A DNA stretch of 64,000 nt. Source: Candidatus Krumholzibacteriota bacterium (lineage in GTDB: Bacteria; Krumholzibacteriota; Krumholzibacteriia; JAJRXK01). Of the stretch, positions 12,320 through 47,043 are shown piece by piece. Under the pieces are notes generated by a model. It was given only the letters and a program-made list of their open reading frames with translations, did no database searches and was not told the DNA's origin. The position numbers and the translations under genes are program-made. Positions within the stretch are counted from its first letter, which is position 1, and each line of letters begins with the position of its first letter. The DNA lies in assembly GCA_963727455.1 (NCBI GenBank), contig CAVSGG010000011.1, positions 31,791 to 95,790 of the forward strand, read 5' to 3'.

Positions 12320-12774
12320 GTCAACTTCCCATCGATGACGATGTCCTTACCCTCTTTATCCACTCGGAAGGCCTCGAGCGGCCGCGGTGGTGGGCCGGAG
12401 ATCACACGCCCATCGACGTCGAAGCGCCCGTTGTGACACGCGCACCAGATCACGCCGTCCCCGGGCACGTACTGTACGGTGCAGCCCTCATGCGTGCACT
12501 TGGCGCTGAGACAGCGCAGCTTCTGCGAGCTATCCTCGAAGACGAGCAAGCGGGTGGCGCCCGAGCGTACGATCACAAACTGGTCATGATCGAGTGTCGC
12601 GGTGTCCTGCGCGCTCAAATGAACGGGTCCGCTCGCCCCCTGCTGGGGCAGAGGTTTCAAGTAGCGGAAGATCGGTAAGATGGCGGCTGCGAGCGTACCC
12701 ACGACCCCCAACCCCAAGAGCCAATCCAAGAAACTGCGGCGGGAGACGAGATCTTCACTGGAAGGTTGCGTCAT
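12316..12774 (-). CDS. Rieske [2Fe-2S] protein
   Basis: Tat motif SRRSFL, CTHEGC and CACHNGRF boxes, GPPPRPL. Confidence 0.93.
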   Translation of the reverse strand: MTQPSSEDLVSRRSFLDWLLGLGVVGTLAAAILPIFRYLKPLPQQGASGPVHLSAQDTATLDHDQFVIVRSGATRLLVFEDSSQKLRCLSAKCTHEGCTVQYVPGDGVIWCACHNGRFDVDGRVISGPPPRPLEAFRVDKEGKDIVIDGKLT

Positions 12775-12991
12775 GGAGCCCTTTCTGCCGATTCTGGCGC
12801 CACCGAGCCACTGGCCCCTTCCCTTGCCCTCCTCGCGGTTTCCCTTGGCAAGCGGAAGATCCGGACGTACGCTCGTACCATACTGGATATTGGGCTCTTG
12901 AGCGTCTTTACTCAAGGACTGATTGAGGACTCTAGGGGACCTCGCCGCAAGAGATTTCTTTCGGAGTGCTCCCGCAGCGAGGGACGACAGC

Positions 12992-30125: not shown

Positions 30126-30668
30126 ATGCGTAAATTCACCTTGATCCTGAGCTTGGCCGTCCTGGCGCTCTTCATCTTCAGCACGATGAGCGTGGCGGCC
30201 GATCATGAGTATGTCGGCGTCTACAAGTGCAAAATGTGCCACAAGACGGAATCCAAGGGGGACCAATACGGGATTTGGCTGAAGAGTGCCCACGCCAATG
30301 CCTACAAGGTTCTTGCCACCGATGAAGCCAAGTCCGTGGCGGCCAAGCTGAAGCTGGAAGGCGACCCGCAGAAATTGGATGAGTGCCTTTCCTGCCACGT
30401 GACCGCGCACGGCGTGGATGCGAAACTCCTGGGTGCCAAGTACACCGTCGAAGATGGTGTGGGCTGCGAGAGCTGCCATGGTCCGGGAGGCGACTATATG
30501 AAAATGCCGGTCATGAAGGACAAGGAAAAGGCGGTGGCCGCGGGCCTGATCATTCCCGATGAGAAGACCTGCATCCAGTGCCACAACGACAAGAGCCCGA
30601 CCTACAAGGAATTCGATTACAAAAAGTTCTACGCCAAGATCGCGCACCCCATTCCCACCGAGAAATAG
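30126..30668 (+). CDS. Periplasmic tetraheme cytochrome c (c554-like)
   Basis: Signal peptide; YVGVYKCKMCH, SAHANAY, CLSCH, GVGCESCHGPG, CIQCH. Confidence 0.9.
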   Translation: MRKFTLILSLAVLALFIFSTMSVAADHEYVGVYKCKMCHKTESKGDQYGIWLKSAHANAYKVLATDEAKSVAAKLKLEGDPQKLDECLSCHVTAHGVDAKLLGAKYTVEDGVGCESCHGPGGDYMKMPVMKDKEKAVAAGLIIPDEKTCIQCHNDKSPTYKEFDYKKFYAKIAHPIPTEK

Positions 30669-30705
30669 GGGCTCAGGCGCGGAGGCGTGAAACCAAAATT
30701 CGAGT

Positions 30706-30731
30706 GACGCCGGTCTTTTCAGGCCGGCGTC
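30706..30731 (+). terminator. Intergenic stem-loop after the c554-like gene
   Basis: GACGCCGGTCT-TTTC-AGGCCGGCGTC; no clear U-tail. Confidence 0.4.
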
Positions 30732-30763
30732 GTTCATGTGAGGCTGGAAGATGAGGATGAAGA

Positions 30764-32734
30764 TTGCGATGGACTGCGAATTCCGGACGCCCCTCCCGGC
30801 GAATCGCACGGCAGTGGACTTACTTCTCGCTGACACTTTTGGCGCTGAGTCTCTTGTCTCCCCGCCCCGTGGTGGCGAGCAGCGACGACTGCCTCGGTTG
30901 CCACGCACCCAAGGAGGAAGTGGTCGACGTAGCGCATCAGGTGGATCCCGCCAAGTTTGCCGCGTCCATTCACGGGCAGGCGGGGCTGGAGTGCACGGAC
31001 TGCCACGAGGGGAATTTCGACGAGGTTCCGCATGAAGGCGTCGTGGTTCCTCACTGCACGAACTGTCACGAAGAGGCCGGCGAGCAGTTCAAGTCCAGCG
31101 CTCACGAACAGATCGTTCTCAAGGAGGGCGAGAACTCGCCCTTCGGCGAGAATCCCTGTGCGGCTTGCCACGGGGTGCACGACGTGCTTCCGCCCGACAA
31201 CCCACAGAGTCGCGTCTTCTATCGCAACATTCCCGCAACCTGCGGGCGCTGTCACGGCGACACCAAGATCATCCAGCTCACCGGGGTGAACGCGAATCCG
31301 CCCGCCCAATACGAGACCAGTGTTCACGGTCTGGATCTGTCAGACCCCAACAAGAAGCCGGCCGTCTGCAGCAGTTGTCACGGTTATCACGACATCCGTC
31401 TGGCGAAAGACCCCAAGTCGCGCATCAACCCCTTCAACATTCCCTCCACCTGCGGCCAGTGCCACAAAGAAGAAGCGCAGACTTACTTGGGTTCAGTGCA
31501 CGGAGTCGCCTCGCAACGGGGCGTGACTTTGGCTCCGACCTGCACCACCTGTCATGGCATGCACACCATTGCTCCGGTCACCCAAAAGGCCGGAGGCAAC
31601 AAGACCAGCCGGCGACTGGTTCGAACCACCTGCCCGGCCTGTCACCAGAGCACAGCGCTGATCAGTCGCTTCAACATCGCTGCCGCGAGAGTCTCGACCT
31701 ACGAGGCAAGCTACCACGGCCTCGTATCCCGTCGTGGCGGGACGAACGTCGCCGACTGCGCGAGCTGTCACGGCATCCACAACATCTACGACTCCAGCGA
31801 TCCCCGCTCCACTGTCGCTCCGCAGAACCTGGAAGCCACCTGCGGAAAATGCCACCCCGGTGCCGGAGAGAAGTTCGTCAAGCAACCCGTTCATCTCCTG
31901 GAATCCAAGACGAGTGCGAAAGCGACCAACATCACTATTTGGGTCAAGCGCGTGTACTGGGTGCTGCTCATCGGCGTCTTGGGCGGCATGTTGCTGCACA
32001 ACGCGGTCATTCTCTTCTTCTACATCCGCAAGAACTGGCGCAAGCAGAAGGGTGAGGAGAACCGCCGGCGCTTCAACCGCAGCGAGATCTGGCAGCACTC
32101 GCTCTTCCTGATCGCATTCGTGCTTCTGGCCCTCTCAGGCTTCATGCTGGCCTATCCCGACCACTGGTGGGCGCGCGCCATGACCGCGCTCGGAGTGGGA
32201 GAAACCGCGCGACGGGCGATTCACCGCGTCAGCGCGGTGGTGATGGTGGCAGTGAGTCTGTACCACATCTACTGGATCGCCTTCACTTCCTACGGACGCG
32301 GCGAGCTGAAACGCATCGCGCCGCGTCTGCGTGACGCGCGCGAGCTTCTGCAGAACATGCGCTTCCACCTGGGCAAGAGCGAACAGCAAGCAGCCTTCGC
32401 CAAGTTCGACTACCCGGCCAAGATGGAGTATTGGGCTCTGGTCTGGGGAACCGTGGTCATGGCTCTGACCGGCGCGATTCTCTGGTTCCCGGTAGTGGCC
32501 ACTTCCGTCTTCCCCTCGTGGATCGTGGATGTCGCCACCGTCATCCACCTCTTCGAAGCGTGGCTGGCGACCCTGGCGATTCTCATCTTCCACTTCTTCT
32601 TCGTGATCTTCCATCCGGAGGTCTACCCGCTCAGCTTCGCGATGCTGCGCGGCACGATGCCCTCGCGTCTTGCGGAGCATCACCATCCGGCCTGGAGGAA
32701 GGAAGACGACGCACCGGCGCCGGCCGGGGAATAA
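30764..32734 (+). CDS. CbcL-like fusion: 11-heme periplasmic cytochrome c plus FdnI/HydC-type cytochrome b membrane domain
   Basis: 11 CxxCH motifs, then TM helices with His ligands (WQH, IHR, YH, IHLFEA, FHFF) and KFDYPAKMEYWALVWG. Start uncertain. Confidence 0.85.
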   Translation: MRWTANSGRPSRRIARQWTYFSLTLLALSLLSPRPVVASSDDCLGCHAPKEEVVDVAHQVDPAKFAASIHGQAGLECTDCHEGNFDEVPHEGVVVPHCTNCHEEAGEQFKSSAHEQIVLKEGENSPFGENPCAACHGVHDVLPPDNPQSRVFYRNIPATCGRCHGDTKIIQLTGVNANPPAQYETSVHGLDLSDPNKKPAVCSSCHGYHDIRLAKDPKSRINPFNIPSTCGQCHKEEAQTYLGSVHGVASQRGVTLAPTCTTCHGMHTIAPVTQKAGGNKTSRRLVRTTCPACHQSTALISRFNIAAARVSTYEASYHGLVSRRGGTNVADCASCHGIHNIYDSSDPRSTVAPQNLEATCGKCHPGAGEKFVKQPVHLLESKTSAKATNITIWVKRVYWVLLIGVLGGMLLHNAVILFFYIRKNWRKQKGEENRRRFNRSEIWQHSLFLIAFVLLALSGFMLAYPDHWWARAMTALGVGETARRAIHRVSAVVMVAVSLYHIYWIAFTSYGRGELKRIAPRLRDARELLQNMRFHLGKSEQQAAFAKFDYPAKMEYWALVWGTVVMALTGAILWFPVVATSVFPSWIVDVATVIHLFEAWLATLAILIFHFFFVIFHPEVYPLSFAMLRGTMPSRLAEHHHPAWRKEDDAPAPAGE

Positions 32735-32738
32735 CTGC

Positions 32739-32797
32739 AAAGAGGGGACGGAAGGCGGTGCGGGCACTTGCTGCCGCGACCGCCTTCAGTCCTCTTT
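32739..32797. terminator. Long imperfect hairpin between convergent genes (possible bidirectional terminator)
   Basis: AAAGAGG..GAAGGCGGT...ACCGCCTTC..CCTCTTT. Confidence 0.5.
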
Positions 32798-34678
32798 CTT
32801 TCCCCGCTCCCATTCGATGAGAAAGAGCGAAGAGTCCTCGCCGCTGAGGATCTCCTCGAAGCGCGCGTCCTTGCGAATGGTCGCGCGTGAGAGCGGTGGA
32901 TGGGGAAAAAACGGAAGCACCCCATCACTCAGGTAGAGATAGTTCACGCCGTATCGTTGCAGACTCCATACGTCCTCTGGCCACGGAAGCTCCTCGAGAT
33001 GATTCACCGGGCCTCGCAGCGCAGTCATTCCCCAGGCCGCTGGATCGATGAAATCCCTCCCACTGATCCAACGCGCCCAAAAGCTCCCGTCATTGATCTG
33101 ATTGGCGATGCGAGCCGAAGGCGGAAGGGCGTTTCTGATTTTTCGAGCGAGATGGAAATCATCTTCTGAGAACGCGGTCAGCTGTTTCAGTTGCCTCAAG
33201 TTTCGCAAGTTGTGTGCGGCGCCCGGCGCGGCCGCGAAGGCGAGCAGAGCACCGAGAACGGCGGCTCCCGCCCAGCGCATGTGCCCGTGCATCTTGGTCC
33301 ATTTCCACAGCTCCGAGACGGGCTCAGCCATGAGCGGGGGCAGCAGAAACAACTGAAGGTACAAGACCCTGGCCGGCTGTTGGTAGTAAGGAGCACTGAG
33401 TACCTTTGAGAGCCCGTCGTGCCGCAAACGCAGATCCAGGTACAGCACGAGTAGGAGCAGGGACATGACCGCCACCGGGCGCGTTCCGCGACGCAGAAGT
33501 CCCCAGAGAATTCCCAGGACCACCAAGCCACGTAGTGCCAGTGACTCTCCGCCGGTATAGTGCAACATCTGGCCCAAAGCCATGCCAAGACCTGGAGAAC
33601 TTCCGGTGGGAGCATCCATCGCGTGCGCGACGTAGCTATGCGCAGCGTTCCACATCGGCAGCCCCATCACCACGCCCAGAACCAGGACGCCTGCCACGCT
33701 CACCCGCCATGAGTGTGAAACCGAAAACGAAGAACTCTTTCCAGCAGCGGAAAGTGATAGGAGCACCAAGAGCAGAATGATGCCCAGCTCACTCGCGTGG
33801 ATCTGCAGCGTCGCGGCGAACAAGAGGCCGATGAGAAGAGCTCCGGTGAAGACCCCGCGGGTATTCCGTAGTGCGCTCCGGATGAACACCACCGTGGTAG
33901 GAACCAAAAAGAACCCGAGTAAGGCACCGAAGCCTCCCCAGGAATAGAGCCCACCCGGCATGTAGAAATTCGAAACCAGAAATACTCCCGCGAGGACGGC
34001 GACGAAATTCTTGAACCTGAGAACTCTCCAGAGAAGACAGGTGGAGATGGGCAGAAGCGTGGTGGCGCCCACTGCCATCATCCACTCCACGATGTACGCC
34101 GGCATGCCGCCGATGTCCGCGATGTGCGCGGCCGACACGTGCCATCCAAGCCAATAGGGTACCCCGAGCTGAACATAGGGAGGAGCGAAGAGCTTCTCGG
34201 GTGACACGGAGCCGGTCTCACGGATTCGCTCGATGAGGAAGGCGTGGTTACTCGCGTCATGAAGATGCGCGGGCACCACGAATGCCCCGAGTCCCTGAAT
34301 GAGAACGGCCGCCATGGCCACCGAAACGGCGCAGACTCCCAGGCACTCACGAAGGTTCAGGGGCGGCAGATCCACCTCGATATCCCGCCAGATTCCTCGG
34401 TAGCTCGAAACCCGCCCCAAAAAATAGCCGGCCAATGAGAGGACGATCGTATGACTCCAGGGTTCCAAAGGAATGGAGAGCGCGGAGGCCAGCGAGTCGA
34501 CTGGGCCCAGGAGCAATCCAGTGGCGAGGGTGAGTACCAGGCGCGTCGGCCAGTCGAGGCCCGGGAGGTAACGCCCGGCCCAAAACCAGCCCGGTAGTCC
34601 CAGGACGATGACGGCGCCGATGGCCCAGTGATACCAGAGCGAGAGATCGACGAGGGGATGGACGGAGACCAGGTTCAT
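32786..34678 (-). CDS. Polytopic membrane protein, GT-C-like glycosyltransferase candidate
   Basis: Many TM segments, HDASNHAF and PYWLGWH loop motifs, and a C-terminal soluble domain (YGVNYLY). Confidence 0.55.
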   Translation of the reverse strand: MNLVSVHPLVDLSLWYHWAIGAVIVLGLPGWFWAGRYLPGLDWPTRLVLTLATGLLLGPVDSLASALSIPLEPWSHTIVLSLAGYFLGRVSSYRGIWRDIEVDLPPLNLRECLGVCAVSVAMAAVLIQGLGAFVVPAHLHDASNHAFLIERIRETGSVSPEKLFAPPYVQLGVPYWLGWHVSAAHIADIGGMPAYIVEWMMAVGATTLLPISTCLLWRVLRFKNFVAVLAGVFLVSNFYMPGGLYSWGGFGALLGFFLVPTTVVFIRSALRNTRGVFTGALLIGLLFAATLQIHASELGIILLLVLLSLSAAGKSSSFSVSHSWRVSVAGVLVLGVVMGLPMWNAAHSYVAHAMDAPTGSSPGLGMALGQMLHYTGGESLALRGLVVLGILWGLLRRGTRPVAVMSLLLLVLYLDLRLRHDGLSKVLSAPYYQQPARVLYLQLFLLPPLMAEPVSELWKWTKMHGHMRWAGAAVLGALLAFAAAPGAAHNLRNLRQLKQLTAFSEDDFHLARKIRNALPPSARIANQINDGSFWARWISGRDFIDPAAWGMTALRGPVNHLEELPWPEDVWSLQRYGVNYLYLSDGVLPFFPHPPLSRATIRKDARFEEILSGEDSSLFLIEWERGKKED

Positions 34679-34691
34679 GAACTGCCTCAGA

Positions 34692-35763
34692 TCACTGCGC
34701 CATGATTCTGGCTAACAGCTCATCGTCGGCCTTCAGGAAGCCCGCCTTGACGATGCGCGGGGTGAGGGTGCGCCAGTTCTCACCCTTCTCGAAGATCTCT
34801 TTGAACATCGCGAGCGCGGAATCGGTCTCGCCCGCGTTGCACAGCGCCACCGCGTACCAGTAGCTGGCCTCGAGATTGTCTCCCAAAATGCGCTGCGCCG
34901 CGCCATAGGCGCGCTTGGCCGCGGCCAGGTCCCCCTTCTCCACCGCCAAGTCGCCCTGGTTCATCATGTCGTAACCGTGCTGCAGAACCAGCAGTCGCCC
35001 GAGTTCTTCCACCGGTTTGGGGGCATCCTCCACCCTCAGGTCGACCACGATGTCGTTCCAGGCTTGGCCGGAAGGTGTGCCCTTCACCACGAGCATCGCG
35101 GCGGACTGCCGGCCACGGATGTCTCCCCCCTCCTTGCTGGGCCGCCTGCAACGCGGCCAGCATACGCTGGGAGAGATCACCCTTCGCGGCTTCGAACGCG
35201 GCCGCCATGGCGTCGGGCACCGTATTCTTCTCCATGAGATTGGCCTGGCAGCTATAGTTCTCGCCCGCGTGATCGCCGGCTTCGGCGATGCAGCCGCTGC
35301 CGGTGTGCACCGCCACCCTTCCCTGGGCATCGATCATCGCCACCTGACGAATTTCCGGGTGATCATCGGCCTGCAGGAGCGCCTTCAAGCTCGCCGGCGC
35401 CGAGCGTCCCGCCGCCATCATGTCCAAACCGAGAGGGCCGTAGGTGAGATCGACCATCGACTGGGTGGCCACCGCGCCCACTCCGGCGCGCGCCCAGGGC
35501 ACGGCGGTCCCCACGCTGAACCAGTGCGACTGCACCGCCACGCCCAGCTCACCAGTCTTGGGATCGCGCGCGACGATGGAATAGGTGGTGACGGGACGGA
35601 TGGGGGAGATCCGCGGAGCGCTCGTCCCAGCCTGCGCGGCGAAAGGCGTGGCGATGGCCGCCGTAGTGGCCTGCGCCTGGACCAAGGAAGGCGCGCAAAA
35701 GCCCGTGGCCAGAGCGGACAGCAGAACTAGAACGGCGAGTGATCGAAGCAACCTGGCATGCAT
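34692..35763 (-). CDS. DUF1028 (Ntn-hydrolase-like) plus TPR exported protein, frameshifted in this sequence
   Basis: TYSIVARDPKTGELGVAVQSHWFSVG in one frame; GGDIRGRQSAA, DLRVED and TPR in another. The switch occurs at a G-rich run near 35125-35135. Confidence 0.85.
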
Positions 35764-35828
35764 CGGAAACTCCTTGCTGGAAGTCCGAAGCATTCTACAC
35801 GGAGCCCAGTCGCTCAACCAGCATCAGC

Positions 35829-37325
35829 TCAAGGCGCGTGACACTCGGTGCACTTGGTATCCTTCCACGCACCGCCGACGTCCTCCGGATGGCGGTACTC
35901 GTGTCCTTCGATGTCGGTGAACCCACTGCCATCGTCGAATTGCTGGGCCACGATGGTGTGACAGACGTTGCAATCGTGGGGAATGGCCTCGCCACTCTCA
36001 GTCACGTGGTTGCCGTCGTGACAGCGGAAGCAACCGTCGCTGAAGAGATGTCCGATGTTGTCCTCGTGAGCCTTCCAGTCGGTCTTCATCTCGGGGAAGT
36101 AGTTCTTCGTGTACAAGTCCCAGGTGACATCGACCGCGGCCTGAATCTGGGCCGCATTGGCGCCGGCATCGCTGCACTGCTTGCGGATGGATTCCTTCAG
36201 TCCCTTCTCCGCCTCCTCGCGATTCGCGTAGTCCTGCTCCATGGCGTCCACCATGATGCCTTTGATGTCGGGGATGGTCTTGCTCACCTTGCCCGTGGCC
36301 AGGGCCCGGTTGGCGAGGTGGGCGGGCGGATTGTAGCGATGCGAAGGCCGGTTGTGGCAGTCGATGCAATCCATCACCCGGATGTTGTCGTCGGTGAGGG
36401 CGCTCTCATCGAAATCCTCGTCAGTGCTCTTGAACACTTTGACGGTTCCATCGGCCGTGGTCGAACGCACCCAAGGAATGACCTGACGACGCTCGTCGGT
36501 CGACACGTACTCCACCTTGTTCTCGCGGTTGCTGTGCCAGTGAATCCCCTCGGTATGACCGGTTTCGCTGTGGGCCCCGCCGGTCTTCAACAAGAGGTGG
36601 AGGCGGAAGTGCCGATTGTCTTCTTCGGGCAAGTAGTAGTCGTGGACCACGTATCGGTCGCTGTAGAAGACCTCGGGCCAGTGACACTGCTCGCAAGTCT
36701 CACGGGAAGGCCGCAGGTTCTTGATCGGGGTATGAATCGGGCGGGGATAGCTGTTGGTCAAAACCGCGTAGACCTGATAGGAGCCGGAGAGCTTCGAACG
36801 AACGAACCACTCGGCTCCCGGACCAATGTGGCACTGTACGCAGGCAACTTTGGCATGCGGGGAATTCTGGTAGGCCACGAATTCCGGTTCCATGACGCTG
36901 TGACAGGTCTCTCCGCAGAACTTCACGCTCTCGGTGGCCTCGTAGGCCTGGTAGGTCCCGAAGGCGGTCATTCCCAAGAAGATCGTCGTCCCCACCGTGA
37001 AGATGACGGCCGCGCGCCGCGTCTGACCTTCATTGAGATCGATGCGCGGCAGAGGCTTGTCGGGCTGCCCATGGCTGCGCCGTCGATGTTGCCGCCAAGC
37101 TCCCACCACCACCGCGAGCAGTCCCATGATCAAGAAGATCGGCAGGATGATGAAGGCGATGATCCCCATGTAGGGGCTGGAGTCCTTGCTCAGGACCTCC
37201 AGGACCATCAGGAAGAGGATCAAGAGCAGGCTCAGCGCGGCCAGGGACGCACCGAGCATCGTGACGAGGTTGTAAAAGACCGAGGGCAGTTTCTTCTGCG
37301 GCGGAGCTTGACCTTCAGAATTCAC
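35829..37325 (-). CDS. ImcH-like NapC/NirT-family heptaheme inner-membrane quinol dehydrogenase
   Basis: Three N-terminal TM helices, FCGETCHSVM (CxxxCH), CVQCHIGPGA, 7 heme motifs in total, CIDCHNRPSH, GCFRCHDG. Confidence 0.85.
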   Translation of the reverse strand: MNSEGQAPPQKKLPSVFYNLVTMLGASLAALSLLLILFLMVLEVLSKDSSPYMGIIAFIILPIFLIMGLLAVVVGAWRQHRRRSHGQPDKPLPRIDLNEGQTRRAAVIFTVGTTIFLGMTAFGTYQAYEATESVKFCGETCHSVMEPEFVAYQNSPHAKVACVQCHIGPGAEWFVRSKLSGSYQVYAVLTNSYPRPIHTPIKNLRPSRETCEQCHWPEVFYSDRYVVHDYYLPEEDNRHFRLHLLLKTGGAHSETGHTEGIHWHSNRENKVEYVSTDERRQVIPWVRSTTADGTVKVFKSTDEDFDESALTDDNIRVMDCIDCHNRPSHRYNPPAHLANRALATGKVSKTIPDIKGIMVDAMEQDYANREEAEKGLKESIRKQCSDAGANAAQIQAAVDVTWDLYTKNYFPEMKTDWKAHEDNIGHLFSDGCFRCHDGNHVTESGEAIPHDCNVCHTIVAQQFDDGSGFTDIEGHEYRHPEDVGGAWKDTKCTECHAP

Positions 37326-37640
37326 GCGGATTCTCCAAGAAAGGCTGAGAGGATCGACCCCAAGCGCCGGGGAAAAGCGCGCGGGAAAGCTGGAGAAGAT
37401 TGTCGAATATAGGTTCTCCAGGGAGCTTCATCTAGTCGTTTTTGGCTGTCAATCCCCCCAATTTTGCCGGGCGAGAAATCCCTCCTTGACCTCGCAAGTT
37501 CTTCAGCAACAATTAGATGAACGAAAGGGGCCCTTTTTCTGCTGCCAATAGCGGAGAGGTGTGCCCTATGCTTCTCTTCTGGACATTCCCTAGCGATCAT
37601 CGAGGACATTCTCGGCGCGCGTGAAGAAAAGAGGCTCGGA

Positions 37641-39008: not shown

Positions 39009-39898
39009 AGCAGCTCTTCGCCATCGGTCTCTGCGTTCTGATCCTGCCCGTCTTCGCGGCGCTGGCCCTGGGCGACAGCCCGGCCACGCCGACCACGGGA
39101 ATCCGGCAGGTTCACGACATCCATGCCGAAAACGGCATCGAGTGCGAGACCTGCCACGAGAACGTTCCCGACGCGACCGGCTTGACCGGACTTCTTCCCT
39201 CCATGGATACCTGCGCCAACTGCCACGACGTGGAGGATGAAGACAACTGCAAGATGTGCCACCTGGGCGAAGAGCCCACTGGCTATCCCGAAGAAGCCGC
39301 GAGCATGAGTTCCGGAATGACGGAGCTGGCGCACTTTCCGCACCAGTCTCACATCCAGAAGCAGGAACTCAACTGCAGCGATTGCCATGCTCCCGACGGC
39401 AAGGGCGGACAGACCTTTCCCCAGCATCCGCAATGCCGGAGCTGTCACGCGACGGCGGCTGGCTTCACCGACTGCTCGATGTGTCACGGCGCCAACCAAG
39501 CGCCGGTGCCGCAGAGCCATGGTCCGCAGTGGATGAGCGAGCATGCGCTTGACGCGACTTTCGACCAGAACAAGTGCGAGAGCTGTCATACGCAGACCGA
39601 TTGCCAGGACTGCCACAACGGAGACAACGTCCGCCCGCGCGTGCACGACCTGAACTTCAGCTTCAGCCACGCGCTGGAAGCCCGAAGCAACCAGATGCTG
39701 TGTCAGACTTGCCACGAGGATCCCGTGTTTTGCTCGAGTTGCCACGCGGCGGAACAAGTGCTGCCCGAAAACCACTCGCGCGCGGACTGGGTGACCAGCC
39801 GGCACGGAGTCGAGGCGAGCTTCAATCTCGAGTCCTGCATCGCCTGTCACGATGCCGGTGAGCAAGATCCCACCTGTGCCCGCTGTCACGGAAGGTAG
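39005..39898 (+). CDS. Periplasmic dodecaheme cytochrome c
   Basis: GTG start overlapping the porin stop, RBS GGAGG, signal peptide, and 12 CxxCH motifs in about 297 aa. Confidence 0.9.
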   Translation: MKQLFAIGLCVLILPVFAALALGDSPATPTTGIRQVHDIHAENGIECETCHENVPDATGLTGLLPSMDTCANCHDVEDEDNCKMCHLGEEPTGYPEEAASMSSGMTELAHFPHQSHIQKQELNCSDCHAPDGKGGQTFPQHPQCRSCHATAAGFTDCSMCHGANQAPVPQSHGPQWMSEHALDATFDQNKCESCHTQTDCQDCHNGDNVRPRVHDLNFSFSHALEARSNQMLCQTCHEDPVFCSSCHAAEQVLPENHSRADWVTSRHGVEASFNLESCIACHDAGEQDPTCARCHGR

Positions 39899-39901
39899 AC
39901 C

Positions 39902-40333
39902 ATGCGTGTTCGCCAATCCCTAGGTCTGTTGCTCGTCCTCTTCCTCATCGCCCTGGTCGCGATGGCCTGCGCCGATCGCAAGGATCCCACCGACACCTTC
40001 TACGCCGCTCATCCCGACGAGCAGTGGATGGAAACCCAGAGCGCCGACTTCCACGGAGCCCTGGTGCGTCGCGACGGCCCCGAGTTTTGCCAGAGCTGCC
40101 ACGGCCAGGATCTCATGGGAGCCGAGCAAGCCCCCAGCTGCTATGAGTGCCACAATGGCCCTGGGGGGCATCCGGCCAACTGGATCAACCCCGACCCACC
40201 CTTCCACGGGGATGCGGTCAACCTCAATGGTCCGTTGGGTTGCCGGGACTGCCACGGTTTGGATTACCGCGGCGGCTGGACCGGTGTGTCCTGCTATCTG
40301 TGCCACGATGGTCCGGCGGGAATTTCTTTTTGA
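39902..40333 (+). CDS. Small tetraheme lipoprotein cytochrome c
   Basis: Lipobox VAMAC; CQSCH, CYECH, CRDCH, CYLCH in two internal repeats (FHG...CxxCHGxDxxG...SCYxCHxGP). Confidence 0.88.
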   Translation: MRVRQSLGLLLVLFLIALVAMACADRKDPTDTFYAAHPDEQWMETQSADFHGALVRRDGPEFCQSCHGQDLMGAEQAPSCYECHNGPGGHPANWINPDPPFHGDAVNLNGPLGCRDCHGLDYRGGWTGVSCYLCHDGPAGISF

Positions 40334-40378
40334 GGAATTACGCCCCCGGGCCTGCGCCAATGGCCTGAGTAGCGATTC

Positions 40379-40496
40379 TGTTGAGGAGTCCAACAGCCCT
40401 GTGGAGAGAGTCCACAGGGCTGTTTATCCGTTGCATGCCAACGAGTTGGAAGCTTACGTGCGTCCGGGCGTCAAAACCGTGTGGAACTTTCCTACA
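40379..40496. promoter_or_regulatory. Three TGT-N11-ACA palindromes (putative enhancer-binding-protein UAS)
   Basis: TGTTGAGGAGTCCAACA 40379-40395, TGTGGAGAGAGTCCACA 40400-40416, TGTGGAACTTTCCTACA 40480-40496. 40392-40424 also forms a 14-bp inverted repeat. Confidence 0.6.
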
Positions 40497-40554
40497 AGCT
40501 CGAATGCGTTGGCTCGCGCTGAGCTGTTTTGTCCTAGACCTCCATCTTCTTGAC

Positions 40555-40567
40555 TATCAACCACTTA
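40555..40567 (+). promoter_or_regulatory. IHF binding site
   Basis: TATCAACCACTTA matches WATCAANNNNTTR exactly and lies between the UAS and the -24/-12 element. Confidence 0.65.
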
Positions 40568-40579
40568 CAAATTGGTCTC

Positions 40580-40621
40580 TGACAGAATGTCCGGCTCGAC
40601 CGCGACGGCATCGCGCATGCG
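40580..40621 (+). promoter_or_regulatory. TGACA-N3-TGTCC operator followed by a sigma-54 -24/-12 promoter
   Basis: TGACAGAATGTCC at 40580-40592; CGGCATCGCGCATGCG with GG(40607-8)-N10-GC(40619-20). Confidence 0.6.
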
Positions 40622-40698
40622 ATGCGAGGAGGCGAACGGGCGCGACCAGGCATGGGTCCATTCCGGACCCGCGGCCGAGCCCCTCGGAGGTGAGAACC

Positions 40699-41391
40699 AT
40701 GGTCGTCGTACTTGTCGCCAGTATGTACATCCTCTTCCTTGCGATCGACGCGATCCTGGACAGACGCAAGCGCAGTCTGCGTGCAGCGGAAACCCAGGCT
40801 CGTCATGCCAAGCTGCGAGAGGCCACCCCGCGCTTCGCCGCGGGATACGCCCTCCCTGAGGATCTTCACTTTCACCAGGGCCACACCTGGCTACATTGGG
40901 TGAGTCCGGAAGAAGCCTATGTGGGAGTCGATGACTTCGGCCGTAGGCTCATCGGGACCGATAGCCGCGTGACTCCCCCCAATCGCGGAAGCTGGGTGCA
41001 TCAGGGCGAGCATGCGGCCAAGGTCCAGCATGAGGGCCGCGAAGTTCATCTGCTCTCGCCGGTCAGCGGTGAGGTTGTCGGGGTCAATCCCGACCTCAAG
41101 AACGACCCCTCGCTGATCAACAAGGATTCTTACGGCCGGGGCTGGATTTTCAAGATCAGGGCCGCCGACCTGCACCAGCAGATCTCCAACCTGCTCTCGG
41201 GAAGTCTGGCTCAGCGCTGGATGGAAGACACCCGGGACCGCTTTCAACGTCAGTTGATGATGGCTTCCGGCAGTGTCATCCAGGATGGCGGTGCCCCGGT
41301 CGATGATGTGGCGAGTCAATTGGATGCCGCGCAATGGCAGCAATTGGCCGGGCAATTCTTCGAGCTTCAGAACAGCTCGAGTGCTGACTAG
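40699..41391 (+). CDS. Membrane-anchored glycine cleavage H-like protein lacking the lipoyl lysine
   Basis: N-terminal TM; FHQGHTW, VGVDDFG, LLSPVSGEVVGVN, DSYGRGWIFKI. QHEGR replaces ESVKA. RBS GGAGGT. Confidence 0.85.
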   Translation: MVVVLVASMYILFLAIDAILDRRKRSLRAAETQARHAKLREATPRFAAGYALPEDLHFHQGHTWLHWVSPEEAYVGVDDFGRRLIGTDSRVTPPNRGSWVHQGEHAAKVQHEGREVHLLSPVSGEVVGVNPDLKNDPSLINKDSYGRGWIFKIRAADLHQQISNLLSGSLAQRWMEDTRDRFQRQLMMASGSVIQDGGAPVDDVASQLDAAQWQQLAGQFFELQNSSSAD

Positions 41392-41400
41392 GGAGCGGGT

Positions 41401-42183
41401 GTGATGAAAGCTCTTCTCTACGATATCAATCTCTGCATCGGCTGTGAAGCCTGCGTGGACGCTTGCAAGGAGGAGAACGGTCTCCCGGAGGAACCGAGGG
41501 ACCGTCTCTCCGCCACTTCGTTCACGTATCTGACGGATGCGGGCAACGATCAATATTACCGTCACATGTGCATGCACTGTGTCGAACCTTCCTGCGCTTC
41601 GGCGTGCCCGGTGGGGGCACTCCAGAAGAACGAGATGGGTCCGGTCACCTACGACTACGACAAGTGCATCGGCTGCCGGTATTGCATGGTCGCCTGCCCC
41701 TTTAGCGTTCCGCGCTACGAGTGGGAGTCGAACACTCCGAGGGTTCGCAAGTGTGAGATGTGCAAGCAGCGCACGCTCGAGGGAGGCGTCACCGCCTGTG
41801 CGGAGATTTGCCCCACCGGAGCCACCACCTTCGGAGACCGGACCGAACTCATCGCCACCGCGTGGAAGCGTATTTCGGAGGACCCCGATTCTTACGCGCC
41901 CCGCGTCTTCGGTACCGAAGAGGTCGGAGGAACCTGCGTTTTGATGATCGGTCCCGAGAAGATTCTCGAGGCTGCCATACCGGGGAATCTCCCCGATACG
42001 GCGCCCCCGGAATTGACCTGGGCCGTCATGGAGCGAATTCCGGCCGCGGTGGGAATCGCGGGGGTGAGCCTTCTGGGCATCAACTGGATCATCCGGCGAC
42101 GGATGTCCTTGGCGGCGCAAAACGGAAACGCCGCGGAACATTCCAGCACTGCGAGTGAGATCGGGCAGGAGGAGGATTTGTGA
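41401..42183 (+). CDS. 4x[4Fe-4S] DmsB/HybA/HmcB-like electron-transfer subunit with C-terminal TM
   Basis: CIGCEACVDAC, CMHCVEPSCASACP, CIGCRYCMVACP, CEMC...ACAEICP. Confidence 0.92.
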   Translation: MMKALLYDINLCIGCEACVDACKEENGLPEEPRDRLSATSFTYLTDAGNDQYYRHMCMHCVEPSCASACPVGALQKNEMGPVTYDYDKCIGCRYCMVACPFSVPRYEWESNTPRVRKCEMCKQRTLEGGVTACAEICPTGATTFGDRTELIATAWKRISEDPDSYAPRVFGTEEVGGTCVLMIGPEKILEAAIPGNLPDTAPPELTWAVMERIPAAVGIAGVSLLGINWIIRRRMSLAAQNGNAAEHSSTASEIGQEEDL

Positions 42184-43388
42184 TGAAAGCTCTGTCCTGG
42201 ATGATCACCCATCCCTGGCGCGTGATCGGAATCGTGGTGACCCTCGGGGGTCTCTACGGGGCCTATCTGCGCTTCACGCAGGGTTTGGGCGCGGTCACCA
42301 ATCTCAGTGACGCCTTTCCCTGGGGAATGTGGGTCGGATTCGACGTGATGTGCGGCGTCATGCTGGCCGCGGGCGGATTCACCATCAGCGCTTTGGTCTA
42401 CATCTTCCAGGTGAAGAAATGGCAGCCCATCGCGCGTCCGGCCGTCCTGACCGCTTTCCTGGGCTACCTCCTCGTCGTGGGCGGGCTCATGTTCGACCTG
42501 GGTCACCCCTTCAAGGTGTGGCACCCCTTGGTCATGTGGAACCATCATTCGGTGATGTGGGAGGTTGCCTGGTGCGTGACGCTCTATACGAGCGTGCTCG
42601 CCATGGAATTCGCGACCTTCGTGTTCGAGAAGTTGAACTGGGAGCGTCTCGCGCGCATCTTCCACCACCTTACCTTCCCTCTGACCCTGGCTGCCGTCCT
42701 TCTCTCCATGCTGCATCAGTCCTCACTGGGCAGTCTGTTCCTGCTGGTGCCGGGACGCCTGGACCCGCTGTGGTACACCCCGCTTCTGCCGTTCCTCTTC
42801 TTCGTGTCGGCGATTGCGGTGGGGCTGACCATGACCATCGTCGAATCGAACTTGAGCGCGAGAGCCTTCGGTCGTTGTATCGAGGGACCCGTACTGCAGA
42901 GCGTGGCAAAGGTCGCGGCCTGGGTGATGGGTTTCTACGCCGTGCTCAGAATCGGCGACCTGGTGCAACGTGGCGCGTTGAGCGAGCTCTGGCCACTGGA
43001 TCGAGCTGCAGGATTTTTCTTCGCTGAAATCATCCTCGGCTTGTTGATTCCGCTTGTCATTTTCAGTTATCCACACTTCCGAAAGAACACGCGGCTGCTG
43101 AACCGTGGTGCACAACTGGCTGTGTTGGGTTTCATCATTCACCGGCTCAACGTGGGAATCACCGGCTTCGAAGTCGTTGCGGGAAAAACCTACACTCCCG
43201 CCTGGACTGAGATTGCCGTATCGCTCATGCTTGTAGCGATAGGTGTGACCGCTTTCAATCTGGCGGGCCGTTACCTTCCCATCTTCGAGACGGAGGATCC
43301 CGAGCGTACGAAGATCTGGGCCCAGGAGAACAAGCGCCTTGCGGGGCTCGAGTTCTCCCGCGCTTCTTCTGCTCCCGATCCGAGGTAA
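42180..43388 (+). CDS. NrfD/PsrC-family membrane subunit (HybB/HmcC-like)
   Basis: VTNLSDAFPWGMWVGFDVMCGVMLAAGGF, DLGHP, SVMWEVAWCV, MLHQSSLG. Confidence 0.92.
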   Translation: MMKALSWMITHPWRVIGIVVTLGGLYGAYLRFTQGLGAVTNLSDAFPWGMWVGFDVMCGVMLAAGGFTISALVYIFQVKKWQPIARPAVLTAFLGYLLVVGGLMFDLGHPFKVWHPLVMWNHHSVMWEVAWCVTLYTSVLAMEFATFVFEKLNWERLARIFHHLTFPLTLAAVLLSMLHQSSLGSLFLLVPGRLDPLWYTPLLPFLFFVSAIAVGLTMTIVESNLSARAFGRCIEGPVLQSVAKVAAWVMGFYAVLRIGDLVQRGALSELWPLDRAAGFFFAEIILGLLIPLVIFSYPHFRKNTRLLNRGAQLAVLGFIIHRLNVGITGFEVVAGKTYTPAWTEIAVSLMLVAIGVTAFNLAGRYLPIFETEDPERTKIWAQENKRLAGLEFSRASSAPDPR

Positions 43389-43419
43389 CGAGTCGGCCAG
43401 ATCCCGGGAGTCGAACGGG

Positions 43420-45153
43420 ATGCACGACCATGCTTCTCCTCCGCCCGCCTCCCGCACTCGCGGTGGCGGGCGGAATCTTATGCGGCAGATTTGGCGCAAC
43501 GTGAGCAACTGCGTGGGGTGGCGACTCGTCTTCATTCTCACCATCGTGCTCAGCCTCTCCCTCAGCGCCGCCGGCATCGTTCTGGAACGCATCCAGCGCC
43601 GTAATATGGTGTCCGTGCTCGAAGACACGGCGCGCAGCATGGGAACGATCGTTCTCGCCACCACGCACACCGCGATGCTCGAGAACAATCAGAATTTGCT
43701 GAACGACATGATCCAGAACCTGGGGACCCAGGAACAAATTCTGGCCGCGCGCGTGGTCTCGGCCGGCGGAGAAGTGCGTTATTCCTCGCGTCCGTCCGAA
43801 CTGGGCAAAGTCGCCGACCGCAGCGCGGAACCCTGTCAGGTTTGTCACCGACAGTCTCAACCGAGCGTGCCGAAGTCCTCCAGGGAGGCACTGCACGTCT
43901 ACCGTCTCGCCACCGGAACCAACGCTCTGGGTCTGGCGGTTCCCATTTTGAATCAAAGCGAATGCTACAACGCGGCCTGTCACGTTCACGATCCGAGTCA
44001 AACCGTACTGGGCATCCTGGACCTCGAATTCAGCACCGAACATTTGGAAGCCGCATTGAGCGAGCAGAAATCCGGTTACTGGATTCTCTCCGGGGCACTG
44101 GTTCTCCTCATCTGTCTCGTGGCGGGGTGGTCGGCCTACCGGGTGGTGCACCGACCGATGCACGCCCTCTTGGACGGCACGCGCAGCATCGCGGCGGGAG
44201 ATCTAGATACGCGGCTCCCCCCCCAGTCGATCGGAGAGGTCCACGAGCTGGCCTCCTCCTTCAACAAGATGGCGGCCCAGCTGGAGACGGCGGCGCACGA
44301 TCGCGAGGAGTGGAACCGCACCCTGGAACGACGCGTAGCCGAGAAGACTGCGCAGCTGAAGAAAGCCCAAGACAAACTGGTACTGACCGAAAAAATGGTG
44401 TCGCTGGGGAAGCTCTCGGCCGTAGTTGCGCACGAGATCAACAACCCGCTGGCCGGAATTCTGGTGACGATCAAGCTTCTCCTGCGCCGCCTGCCCCGGC
44501 TTCTGGACGGCACCTCCAGCGAAGAGGAACGCAAGAGTTCCATCGAGCAGCTGGAAATGGTCGAACACGAGACCGCGCGCTGCGGTGACATCGTGCGCAA
44601 CCTGCTTTTGTTTTCGCGTCGGCGCGAATTGCAGACGCGAATGGAGGATATCGCGGAAATTCTGCGCCGTTGCCTCAAGCTCGTCGGTCACCGCGCGCAG
44701 CTCCAGCAAGTAACCGTCATCGAGAACTTTCCCGAGAAGCTGCCGCATATCGACTGTGACGCAAACCAAGTGGAACAGGCCTGTCTGGTGATGGTGATGA
44801 ATGCCCTGGATGCAATGCCCGAAGGTGGCGAACTGGCTCTCAATCTGGAGTATCTTGAAAAAGAGAAGATGGTACGGGTCAGAGTGCGTGATACCGGCCC
44901 AGGGATTCCCCTAGAAATTCAGGCGCGTATCTTCGAGCCCTTTTTCTCCACCAAGGAAAGCGGCCAGGGCACGGGTTTGGGTCTTGCCGTCCTCTACGGC
45001 ATCGTGCAACGGCATCACGGGCGCATCGATTTTCAATCGCGGCGCGGGGAGGGTACGAGCTTCTGGATGGACCTGCCGGTCAAGTCCCCGCCTTCTTCGC
45101 CCGACGGAAGCTCTTCCGGCGAAGGTTCCGAACAAGAGGTCATCGAATCATGA
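43420..45153 (+). CDS. Membrane HAMP sensor histidine kinase with periplasmic heme-c motifs
   Basis: Two TMs flank a domain with CQVCH and CYNAACH; HAMP; AHEINNPL; FEPFFSTK; GTGLGL. Start 43420 or 43480. Confidence 0.92.
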   Translation: MHDHASPPPASRTRGGGRNLMRQIWRNVSNCVGWRLVFILTIVLSLSLSAAGIVLERIQRRNMVSVLEDTARSMGTIVLATTHTAMLENNQNLLNDMIQNLGTQEQILAARVVSAGGEVRYSSRPSELGKVADRSAEPCQVCHRQSQPSVPKSSREALHVYRLATGTNALGLAVPILNQSECYNAACHVHDPSQTVLGILDLEFSTEHLEAALSEQKSGYWILSGALVLLICLVAGWSAYRVVHRPMHALLDGTRSIAAGDLDTRLPPQSIGEVHELASSFNKMAAQLETAAHDREEWNRTLERRVAEKTAQLKKAQDKLVLTEKMVSLGKLSAVVAHEINNPLAGILVTIKLLLRRLPRLLDGTSSEEERKSSIEQLEMVEHETARCGDIVRNLLLFSRRRELQTRMEDIAEILRRCLKLVGHRAQLQQVTVIENFPEKLPHIDCDANQVEQACLVMVMNALDAMPEGGELALNLEYLEKEKMVRVRVRDTGPGIPLEIQARIFEPFFSTKESGQGTGLGLAVLYGIVQRHHGRIDFQSRRGEGTSFWMDLPVKSPPSSPDGSSSGEGSEQEVIES

Positions 45154-46508
45154 GTACTGCAGCCGCCGATACACTGAAAATCTTGGTCGTCGACGACGAA
45201 ACTGTCGTACGGGAATCGCTCGCGGGATGGCTTCAGGAAGATGGCCACACGGCGATCACCGCGTCCGACGCACAGCAGGCCCTCATCCGCCTCAAGAAAG
45301 AACCGTGCGATCTCGCATTCGTGGATATCAAAATGCCAGGAATGGATGGGCTCGAGCTGAACCGTCGCATTCAAGAGATCTCTCCCGATACTACCGTCAT
45401 CATCATCACTGCTTATGCCTCGGTGGAAACCGCGGTCCAGGCCTTGCGCGAGGGCGCCCACGATTACATCACCAAGCCCTTCGATCCCGAGCATCTCAGT
45501 CATGTAGTCCGCAACACGGCGGCCCAGCGCAATCTGGAGCGGGAGAACTTACAGCTGCGCGAGAAGCTCGCCTCCACCTCCGCCTCCACCCCGATTCTGG
45601 GCGAGAGTCCAGCCATCAAGCGGGTCCGGGAGCTCATCGAAACGGTGGGCCCCACCGAGAGCACGGTGCTCATCACCGGTGAGTCGGGAACCGGCAAGGA
45701 ACTCGTGGCACGCGGTATTCACACGGCGAGCCCGCGCGCGTTTCTCCCATTGGTGGTGGTGAATTGCGGAGCTCTGCCCGAGGGAACCCTGGAGAGCGAA
45801 CTCTTCGGACACGAACGGGGTGCATTCACCGGCGCGCAATACCGACACAAGGGCAAGTTCGAGCTGGCCGACAAGAGCACTCTCTTCTTGGATGAGATCG
45901 GCGAAGTCTCCCCCAAGATCCAAGTGGAGCTTTTGCGAGTGCTCGAAGAAAAGAAGGTTACGCGCCTGGGCGGAACCAGCGAGACCAGTGCCGACTTTCG
46001 CACCGTGGCCGCAACGAACAAGGACCTCCAGCTCGAAGTACAGGCGGGGAATTTCCGCGAGGACCTATTTTACCGTCTCAACGTGTTTCAGATTCACCTC
46101 CCACCCCTGCGTGAACGCAGAGAGGACATTCCGCTTTTGGCGCATGCTTTCGTGACGCGTTTGGCCGCGAGCATGAACAAACCGGTGCCCGAATTGGAAA
46201 GCGAGGCAGTGTCGCGACTGAAGGAGCATGATTGGCCGGGGAACGTGCGCGAGCTGACCAACGCCATCGAGAGGGCCCTGGTCATCCATCAGGGGGGTAG
46301 GATACGCGCGGCTGACCTCCCCATCGGAACGCGCTTTGAACCGGTCTTGGGAAATGGTCCGCGCTCCTTGGCGGAGGCGGAAAAGCAACATGTCCAGAGG
46401 GTCCTGAGCGACTGCGATTGGAACATCTCTCAGGCCGCCCGGATTCTCGAGGTGGACCGCACGACGGTGTACAACAAGATCAAGCTCTACGACTTGAAGA
46501 AGGATTGA
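45150..46508 (+). CDS. Sigma-54-dependent response regulator (REC-AAA-HTH)
   Basis: ILVVDDE, DIKMPGMDG, GESGTGKE, GAFTGA, WPGNVREL, and HTH. Confidence 0.95.
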   Translation: MSTAAADTLKILVVDDETVVRESLAGWLQEDGHTAITASDAQQALIRLKKEPCDLAFVDIKMPGMDGLELNRRIQEISPDTTVIIITAYASVETAVQALREGAHDYITKPFDPEHLSHVVRNTAAQRNLERENLQLREKLASTSASTPILGESPAIKRVRELIETVGPTESTVLITGESGTGKELVARGIHTASPRAFLPLVVVNCGALPEGTLESELFGHERGAFTGAQYRHKGKFELADKSTLFLDEIGEVSPKIQVELLRVLEEKKVTRLGGTSETSADFRTVAATNKDLQLEVQAGNFREDLFYRLNVFQIHLPPLRERREDIPLLAHAFVTRLAASMNKPVPELESEAVSRLKEHDWPGNVRELTNAIERALVIHQGGRIRAADLPIGTRFEPVLGNGPRSLAEAEKQHVQRVLSDCDWNISQAARILEVDRTTVYNKIKLYDLKKD

Positions 46509-46512
46509 GGTC

Positions 46513-47043
46513 GTGGAGGGTCTCGCCCTGATGGCGATGGGCGATCTTCCCGGGGGTTATCCCGCCCTCGTGAAGGAGCGACTGCAGAAGGAGACTTCCA
46601 TGGTCTGCAGAATTCTCGACCGCGTGCTCGATCCTTCCGTGGCCTACGACTCCCAGCGGGCTCAGTACAACTGCCGCGCGCTCCTGCCGCTCCTGGAAAA
46701 CATCTCGATGGAAGAGAATTGCCGCGTTCTGGGTGTGGCTGACGTCGATCTCTTCTCTCCCATTTTCACTTTCGTTCTGGGAGAGGCGCACCTCAATGGA
46801 CGCTGCGGCCTCTTCTCGCTGCATCGTCTGCATCCTTCTCAGTACGGACTGAAGGAGGATCACGAACTTTTGAGGGCTCGCTCCGAGCGCGAGGCCCTTC
46901 ACGAGACCGGACATCTCTTGGGATTGGAACATTGCAGAGACCCGAACTGCGTCATGCAGTTCTCAGCTTCAGTAGAAGAAGTGGACTTGAAACCAGCGGA
47001 ATTCTGTTCTCGCTGCGCGGCCGTCGCACGGGCTGCGTTCTGA
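46513..47043 (+). CDS. Archaemetzincin-family zinc metallopeptidase (M54)
   Basis: RAQY, DVDLF...FTFVLGEA, HETGHLLGLEHC...CVM.FS...VDLK...FCSRC. Confidence 0.9.
   Translation: MEGLALMAMGDLPGGYPALVKERLQKETSMVCRILDRVLDPSVAYDSQRAQYNCRALLPLLENISMEENCRVLGVADVDLFSPIFTFVLGEAHLNGRCGLFSLHRLHPSQYGLKEDHELLRARSEREALHETGHLLGLEHCRDPNCVMQFSASVEEVDLKPAEFCSRCAAVARAAF

Follow-up and report, generated by a model that had tools for sequence, protein, structure and literature searches.

A predicted porin-cytochrome conduit with a repeat-built lipoprotein cytochrome in Candidatus Krumholzibacteriota

We analysed a 64,000-nucleotide stretch of DNA (the window) from a Candidatus Krumholzibacteriota bacterium and focused on a 17 kb span of it (positions 30,126 to 47,043), for which a sequence-only reading had proposed a complete, self-regulated island of extracellular electron transfer. 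The elements in question are three adjacent genes for an outer-membrane β-barrel, a periplasmic dodecaheme cytochrome and a lipoprotein cytochrome (the conduit trio), together with the ImcH-like and CbcL-like genes on one side of them and a GcvH-like/FeS/NrfD operon on the other.

Gene content of the locus

The window lies on contig C11 of a host genome (G000) of 3.46 Mb and 89% completeness. Six-frame translation of the region contained 39 CxxCH motifs, whereas 200 base shuffles averaged 0.8 and never exceeded 4. All five multiheme genes of the sequence-only reading were confirmed, with 37 CxxCH motifs and one CX3CH motif, and its total of 38 is reached only with the CX3CH counted. The iron-sulphur (FeS) protein, the NrfD protein, the HAMP histidine kinase, the NtrC-type regulator and hemN were also located where it had placed them, hemN exceeding the TIGR00538 cut-off. 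Its expectation that the host is not a Geobacter was borne out, in that two same-genus genomes with barrels 85-89% identical carry the Ca. Krumholzibacteriota label. The imcH gene lies on the strand opposite to the barrel gene and the two diverge; a DUF6541 gene and a frameshifted DUF1028 gene stand between imcH and cbcL, and the span also encloses a membrane-anchored GcvH-like gene and an archaemetzincin gene (Table 1).

Table 1. Features of the 17 kb span, in window coordinates, conduit genes first
Feature	Position	Strand	Basis or remark
Plug-less 22-strand outer-membrane β-barrel, unnamed family	37641..39008	+	AlphaFold2 model
Periplasmic dodecaheme cytochrome	39005..39898 (open reading frame called from 38255)	+	12 CxxCH, 24 His, signal peptide
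Lipoprotein cytochrome, two copies of a 49-amino acid two-heme repeat	39902..40333	+	Lipobox Cys, 4 CxxCH
Sigma-70-like promoter candidate for the trio	37486..37513	+	TTGACC-16-AACAAT; weak evidence
ImcH-family menaquinol dehydrogenase, predicted	35829..37325	-	3 transmembrane helices, CX3CH first, six CX2CH, 498 amino acids
CbcL-type quinol-interacting cytochrome	30764..32734	+	11 CxxCH, 5 hydrophobic helices, PF01292
Periplasmic tetraheme cytochrome, c554-like fold family	30126..30668	+	4 CxxCH, signal peptide, PF13435 (E 1e-19)
DUF6541 membrane protein and DUF1028/TPR gene (two open reading frames)	32786..35817	-	Pfam; outside the electron chain
Sigma-54-type -24/-12 site ahead of the GcvH-like gene	40607..40620	+	Conserved in relatives
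Membrane-anchored GcvH-like protein	40699..41391	+	PF01597
HybA/HmcB-like FeS protein	41401..42183	+	NCBIfam best match HmcB, below cut-off
HybB/HmcC-like NrfD protein	42180..43388	+	NCBIfam best match HmcC, below cut-off
Heme-binding HAMP histidine kinase	43480 onward	+	One CxxCH and one CX4CH
NtrC-type regulator	45150-46508	+	Library matches
Archaemetzincin, operon end	46513-47043	+	NF033823 over cut-off

Barrel, dodecaheme and repeat-built lipoprotein

The product of the 37641 gene (455 amino acids), a β-barrel candidate in the sequence-only reading, was modelled with AlphaFold2 from an alignment of 61 sequences. The model was a barrel of 22 strands across residues 55-441, with no plug and a predicted local distance difference test (pLDDT) score of 87.8. 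Its closest folds were 22-strand TonB-receptor barrels (Z 18.3, root-mean-square deviation (rmsd) 4.9, 348 residues); identity as a TonB receptor was rejected, the protein having no plug and a length of 455 amino acids. No family exceeded its cut-off for the barrel in Pfam or NCBIfam, for 15 aligned members in NCBIfam or for 63 distant homologues in Pfam, and the barrel profile had no match among solved-structure sequences beyond one chance hit (E 0.11). The family numbered 944 representatives at E ≤ 0.001 (50% identity), with named members in Eisenbacteria, Latescibacteria, Zixibacteria, Omnitrophota and Geoalkalibacter subterraneus. Sequence resembling the promoter candidate of Table 1 precedes the barrel in four of four same-genus relatives; by itself the candidate is not above chance, because 3 such sites were found against 3.2 expected, and the promoter and terminator scan as a whole stayed at chance level. 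In four relatives a 9-heme cytochrome gene stands directly upstream of the barrel (L024:11143-14328, L025:7055-8863, L026:7061-8851 and L035:2306-4636).

The true start of the dodecaheme gene lies at about 39005, overlapping the barrel stop codon. A profile search matched residues 32-157 of its product to c7 polymers (3ov0_A, E 1e-22). The sequence-only reading had proposed a porin-cytochrome conduit, and a model of barrel and dodecaheme in complex agreed, scoring 0.81 compared with 0.01 for the best of three controls and passing a calibrated mark; the model runs shared at least 79% of contacts, with partner pLDDT of at least 69. In the complex model, dodecaheme residues 147-297 (hemes 5-12) touch all 22 strands, mostly at alternating positions. 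The modelled interface holds 15 of the 35 conserved barrel residues other than Gly and Pro, five of them Arg, and Arg is its most frequent strand residue. The model supports binding of the dodecaheme in the barrel lumen. The periplasmic cytochrome of shorter relatives is an 8-heme core, lacking the first three hemes and heme 6, and this core corresponds closely to the part modelled inside the barrel. The inner half of the dodecaheme also aligned with the lipoprotein repeat profile (hhalign 98.5%, a kind of score that common Cys and His inflate). In genus g9 (L033:1490-7278 and L034:5063-9680), a distant barrel is followed by an 8-heme core and ImcH and faces a 15-17-heme cytochrome c/b fusion, which is an independent compact arrangement.

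The most unusual part of the locus is the repeat-built lipoprotein, which the first reading missed. Its four CxxCH motifs are spaced 17/34/17, and each repeat carries two extra His for its two hemes, in the pattern G-H-P-x2-W-x5-8-H-G-x2-V-x7-CxxCH-G-x-D-x2-GG-x-S-x2-S-CxxCH-D-G-P. Spacings of 17 alternate with spacings of 31-36 residues throughout the family, more loosely in 2 of 24 loci (L028 and L029). The order barrel, dodecaheme, repeat lipoprotein was found at 24 of the 30 barrel loci examined, the window included. The number of hemes per lipoprotein at these 24 loci was 4 (three loci), 6 (five), 8 (four), 10, 14, 16 and 18 (one each), 22 (two), 24 (one), 26 (four) and 28 (one), corresponding to 2-14 repeat copies behind a constant barrel and dodecaheme, and the genome studied carries the shortest form. 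Since the lipoprotein is a chain of two-heme repeats of identical pattern, its length can shift by gain or loss of repeats while barrel and dodecaheme stay fixed. Among the other six loci, the contig ends in the barrel (one), the lipoprotein is absent (one), a different 11-heme lipoprotein follows (one), or an 8-heme core is present and the repeat lipoprotein is absent (three).

Repeat expansion as an assembly artefact was rejected, as shifted repeat windows were just 50-62% identical, and the 4-heme form as a truncation was rejected because two other assemblies have the identical end. The repeat lipoprotein family was present in 37 of 181 genomes of the phylum. No NCBIfam model covers the repeat, and its profile matched no solved-structure sequence (one at E 0.88). 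An AlphaFold2 model of six repeats reached pLDDT 53, and this model, too poor to be informative, gave no fold match at Z ≥ 2. Atlas clusters with similar features in Thermodesulfobacteriota and Acidobacteriota imply that the repeat may not be confined to the phylum. The new element of this locus is a lipoprotein that two-heme repeats can extend, paired with a barrel of an unnamed family. Neither the barrel family, nor the two-heme-repeat lipoprotein, nor the GcvH-like/NrfD/zincin module was found described in the literature searched, a body of work whose coverage leaves out most subscription papers.

Separable modules of the span

The 17 kb comprise three separable modules, namely the conduit trio, the ImcH/CbcL/c554-like genes and the GcvH-like/FeS/NrfD/kinase/regulator/zincin operon. 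The ImcH assignment held: ImcH proteins are described with three N-terminal transmembrane helices, a CX3CH followed by six CX2CH motifs and a length of 495-519 amino acids (PMC4251993, PMC6295460), and residues E132, H142, K178, Q184 and Y193 of the product here correspond, at a constant +5 offset and by position and spacing rather than by alignment to the G. sulfurreducens sequence, to the heme-1 pocket residues E127, H137, K173, Q179 and Y188 named for G. sulfurreducens ImcH (10.1101/2023.05.03.539133). Neither ImcH nor the NrfD protein matched any solved-structure sequence. The membrane domain of the 30764 protein matched FdnI (1kqf_C, E 8e-10), with His445, 487, 595 and 610 within helices, and its architecture, a multiheme c domain joined to an FdnI-like b-heme domain, is that of the CbcL/MtoC/MtrH type. 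A second CbcL-type protein of the genome is a 19-heme cytochrome c/b fusion (G000:C17:203052-205844, - strand). The c554-like gene stands directly before cbcL in five inspected relatives; over residues 3-126 its product scored 69 bits against the cytochrome c554 (Nitrosomonas CycA) model NF043010, below the cut-off of 400, and we regard it as a candidate periplasmic carrier that is c554-like and not a true c554.

In a search of the 181 genomes, ImcH-like proteins were found in 111, CbcL-like proteins in 112 and the barrel in 41, the ImcH-like and CbcL-like genes lying mostly at a distance from the barrel. In a separate search, 7991 of 8000 scored candidates were ImcH-like. Among the matches listed, 9 of the 41 barrel-bearing genomes had ImcH and a barrel match no more than 10 kb apart, a count that omits six ImcH matches and comes from many short contigs. 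Two families, f4 (0/35 genomes) and f7 (0/8), had no match to barrel, ImcH, CbcL, NrfD or repeat lipoprotein at the thresholds used, which suggests a non-respiring branch of the phylum.

In 14 of 18 copies a sigma-54-type site lies 40-120 nt ahead of the GcvH-like gene, compared with 46 of 1913 background open reading frames (2.4%); the pattern was derived from 11 of the 18 copies and holds in three of the seven others. The GcvH-like protein lacks the lipoyl-accepting Lys, since the E. coli GcvH Lys aligns to Gly and none of 19 copies has a Lys there. The gene is tandemly duplicated at L022:5876-7703 and L023:11858-13915, with a sigma-54-type site before each copy. A twin-arginine (Tat) signal is a feature of HmcB/HybA FeS subunits. 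The FeS subunit here showed none in nine of nine aligned copies or in 10 further copies, and an HmcB-like gene in L052 does carry one. TatC is present in the genome, no Tat-bearing partner for the subunit was found in the locus, and a periplasmic position is implied by the C-terminal helix of the subunit and the topology of NrfD. An inverted NrfD as the cause of the missing signal was rejected, the heme fusions carrying an extra helix; in L045:6905-8467 and L056:6775-8835, NrfD is joined through such a helix to 3 or 6 c-type hemes. The CxxCH of the kinase is kept in eight of eight aligned kinases. Among 11 loci picked by NrfD matches, nine have FeS, NrfD and kinase together, none has a barrel, and one (L057) has c554 and cbcL upstream. 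The kinase and regulator probably control their own GcvH-like/FeS/NrfD operon.

Outside these modules, the DUF1028/TPR gene (34692-35817, - strand) is interrupted by a single additional base in a homopolymer run when compared with two same-genus relatives, probably a sequencing slip, and neither it nor the DUF6541 gene was found at the corresponding locus of two more distant same-genus genomes. A 421-amino acid open reading frame (47071-48336, + strand) separates the zincin gene from hemN; it encodes a single-helix membrane protein that is conserved there within the genus and has no Pfam or NCBIfam match. The hypF gene (27601-29880, + strand) lies directly 5' of the c554-like gene, as it does in three same-genus relatives; the sole NiFe hydrogenase motif found in the genome sits on contig C9 beside its own hyp genes. 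At 9333-12915 of the window (- strand), 17 kb upstream, a Rieske protein, a cytochrome b6-like protein and a 9-heme cytochrome anchored in the membrane by its C terminus form a candidate bc-type quinol oxidoreductase. In the host genome as a whole, 19 open reading frames have at least three CxxCH motifs. Its respiratory genes include a heme-copper oxidase together with alternative complex III, a bd oxidase and a second COX1-family protein, besides a Hox-type hydrogenase cluster (the complex III and Hox labels being assigned by gene anatomy). A further conduit-like cluster (G000:C9:532095-539000) consists of a flavoprotein gene and membrane genes, then cytochrome open reading frames with 20 and 12 motifs and a possible barrel. 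Contigs C8 (300949, 379204, 286943) and C9 (40363, 112077, 26316) share near-duplicate pentaheme and ccm genes, which may reflect strain mixing, because genome contamination is 6.7%.

Proposed electron path, alternatives and known systems

The trio is probably a real and functional conduit of the porin-cytochrome (Pcc) type, accompanied by a genuine ImcH; iron redox metabolism had been suspected in this phylum before. With moderate confidence we favour a three-gene conduit of Pcc design that carries electrons outward and has a lipoprotein of variable length, the GcvH-like/NrfD operon being separate. The conduit probably exports electrons. ImcH and CbcL would oxidise menaquinol at the inner membrane, and the dodecaheme would receive electrons at its c7-like end from a periplasmic carrier, plausibly the c554-like tetraheme. 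The last eight dodecaheme hemes are modelled as threading the 22-strand barrel. The lipoprotein would receive electrons on the outer face, with Fe(III), humic quinones, conductive surfaces or other cells as possible acceptors. The GcvH-like/FeS/NrfD genes would form a separate, probably self-regulating sigma-54 operon, in this family often beside the conduit and not needed to define it.

Several observations weigh against this interpretation. The complex model may have passed because it resembles porin-cytochrome pairs of known structure, MtrAB among them, and the calibration counts of its mark, passed by 116 of 157 solved complexes and by 2 of 215 mismatched pairs, hold only roughly because author-supplied alignments were used. 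ImcH-like proteins in 111 of 181 genomes, against the barrel in 41, imply an ImcH independent of the barrel conduit. The surface position of the lipoprotein is a prediction, and its lipobox would suit the inner leaflet too. In genus g5, all five inspected repeat lipoprotein loci lack an adjacent barrel. Inward flow is possible, given the alternative complex III and heme-copper oxidase, the bd oxidase and the second COX1-family protein of this genome.

The last point belongs to a reading, very unlikely in our estimate, in which Fe(II), reduced humics or a cathode feeds the quinone pool through CbcL, as with MtoC, and oxygen is the final acceptor. Fe(II) oxidisers do have CbcL/MtoC homologues (PMC6295460) and Cyc2 has been reported in Krumholzibacteria (PMC7914226, PMC9769843), but imcH and the barrel share a divergent promoter region, ImcH is tied to the reduction of high-potential acceptors (PMC4251993), and the outer lipoprotein is often absent from the conduits of Fe(II) oxidisers (PMC4245776). 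A 2018 survey (PMC6295460) reported ImcH itself from Fe(III) reducers only. It is quite unlikely that the repeat lipoprotein faces the periplasm or acts as a heme capacitor, leaving barrel and dodecaheme alone as the outward contact. Sevenfold variation in copy number is what a store would be expected to show, the barrel-free loci of genus g5 and the absence or replacement of the repeat lipoprotein at 5 of 30 barrel loci fit the same idea, and two-gene Pcc clusters with 12-14-heme cytochromes are known (PMC4245776); against this, the lipoprotein keeps a fixed third operon position, as OmcB does, the lipobox lacks an Asp at position +2 in all 23 of the 23 relatives compared (the +2 Asp rule for lipoproteins comes from E. 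coli), and the dodecaheme already extends into the periplasm.

We consider it unlikely that all 17 kb form a single co-regulated chain from quinol to surface, in which FeS/NrfD would be a third quinol dehydrogenase feeding the conduit and the heme kinase would control everything. All modules do stand together in five genomes (G000-G003 and G005), 10 genomes from two families have the NrfD module (or, where the contig breaks, its end) next to the trio, the trio and the NrfD module share a strand, and the NrfD-c-heme fusions of two relatives imply that such NrfDs feed periplasmic cytochromes. However, the FeS/NrfD/kinase module stands without a barrel at eight inspected loci, seven of them in genomes that lack any barrel match, ImcH is near the barrel in few of the barrel-bearing genomes, imcH and cbcL lie in separate transcription units, and the FeS subunit lacks a Tat signal. 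The conserved sigma-54-type site lies past the conduit genes, ahead of the GcvH-like gene, and a weaker match before the barrel is lost in two same-genus genomes, so the heme-sensing regulation that the sequence-only reading gave to the conduit is not supported. Its single, self-regulated island is overstated. Nor is the lineage an unrecognised one, as it had suggested: iron reduction or oxidation by Krumholzibacteria has already been proposed from other marker genes, OmcS and Cyc2 hits (PMC7914226, PMC9769843), and homologues of ImcH and CbcL are known from 12 and 15 phyla, respectively (PMC6295460). Service in nitrite or hydroxylamine metabolism, the grouping that would have spoken against a conduit, is extremely unlikely and was already disfavoured. 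Pfam matches to c554 and NapC/NirT point that way, but the c554 score of 69 and an NrfH score of 48 against a cut-off of 134 both fall short, the five cytochrome genes have no CxxCK motif, the 89%-complete genome has no NrfA-family match (two controls were positive), and such enzymes need no barrel.

Returning to the outward Pcc-type conduit, a bolder extension of it is possible rather than probable: the lipoprotein may be a single-chain heme wire of genetically set length, in which a bis-His two-heme unit, akin to the one filling the barrel, is stacked 2-14 times outside a fixed conduit. If this is true, Krumholzibacteriota would adjust how far they reach towards minerals, particles or partner cells through repeat number and not through filament polymerisation, and the phylum would be a widespread one that respires extracellularly with a barrel family named in no library. 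Searches with MtrB markers would miss this family, and an uncultured phylum would join the known systems. The natural series of 4-28 hemes on one scaffold makes the relation of wire length to reach, rate and electron storage directly testable, and designers of protein wires might take the repeat lipoprotein as a building block; its minimal member is the 4-heme form. The GcvH-like/FeS/NrfD/kinase/zincin operon is of interest as a separate conserved unit with two odd features, the missing lipoyl lysine and the missing Tat signal.

Among known systems, the inner-membrane and operon proteins resemble described families to different degrees. The ImcH here shares with GSU3259 its three transmembrane helices, CX3CH and six CX2CH motifs, length and five heme-1 pocket residues; imcH is monocistronic in G. 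sulfurreducens (PMC4251993) and diverges here from the conduit operon. CbcL has 9 hemes and the protein here 11, within a reported family range of 3-23 (PMC6295460), the comparison being one of architecture. The FeS protein and its 10-helix NrfD partner resemble HmcBC/HybAB, but fall below the cut-offs, lack the Tat signal and are accompanied by a non-lipoylated GcvH-like protein, a heme kinase, an NtrC regulator and an archaemetzincin instead of HmcA or a hydrogenase. MtrCAB of Shewanella (6R2Q) has the same design as the trio, and the barrel matched the MtrB fold (Z 15.1, rmsd 6.3, 325 residues). However, the 37641 protein has 455 amino acids and 22 strands, compared with about 650 amino acids for MtrB and about 28 predicted strands for MtrB/PioB; the MtrB/PioB family (PF11854, TIGR03509) had no match in the barrel protein, its 15 aligned members (NCBIfam) or the genome, and the dodecaheme lies outside the DmsE/MtrA family.

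A homologue of the barrel, GSUB_03325 of Geoalkalibacter subterraneus (hhalign 98.2% over 234 columns), links the family to known metal reducers. Metagenome loci with a barrel 99% identical to GSUB_03325 carry a homologous decaheme (E 5e-26) and then lipoprotein-type multiheme cytochromes. A homologous 10- or 15-heme cytochrome follows the barrel in six of eight full-barrel metagenome loci with close relatives of GSUB_03325, the other two ending too soon, and unrelated 13-16-heme lipoprotein-type cytochromes come next where the contig extends; the Geoalkalibacter-type lipoprotein had no match among solved-structure sequences. This is the pattern reported for Pcc clusters, whose barrel evolves together with the periplasmic cytochrome while the outer cytochrome is exchanged (PMC4245776, PMC6148476). 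The cluster studied here is not described in the accessible text of PMC12133095, PMC11492766 or PMC5877670 or in the accessible supplement rows of PMC6148476. Differences in heme number between homologous cytochromes have been noted before, and the accessible text of these grafting and pruning accounts does not describe a strict 49-amino acid two-heme repeat on a conduit lipoprotein (PMC9250108, PMC7399161).

All three parts of the published conduit definition, a β-barrel, an adjacent periplasmic multiheme cytochrome and a lipoprotein with redox cofactors (PMC6148476), are predicted at the locus. Compared by description and not by sequence with OmbB, ExtB and ExtE, it resembles the Pcc systems of G. 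sulfurreducens (OmbB-OmaB-OmcB, ExtABCD and ExtEFG) in combining a barrel, a periplasmic cytochrome and a lipoprotein cytochrome, and it shares the gene order of ombB-omaB-omcB. Its 22 strands and 12 hemes lie within the ranges given for Pcc clusters (18-22 predicted strands, 5-14 periplasmic hemes; PMC4245776), and the 8-heme core of its relatives has the heme count of OmaB. It differs from these systems in its Krumholzibacteriota host, in the 4-heme c7-like extension of the periplasmic cytochrome, and in an outer cytochrome built of 2-14 perfect tandem copies of a two-heme repeat.

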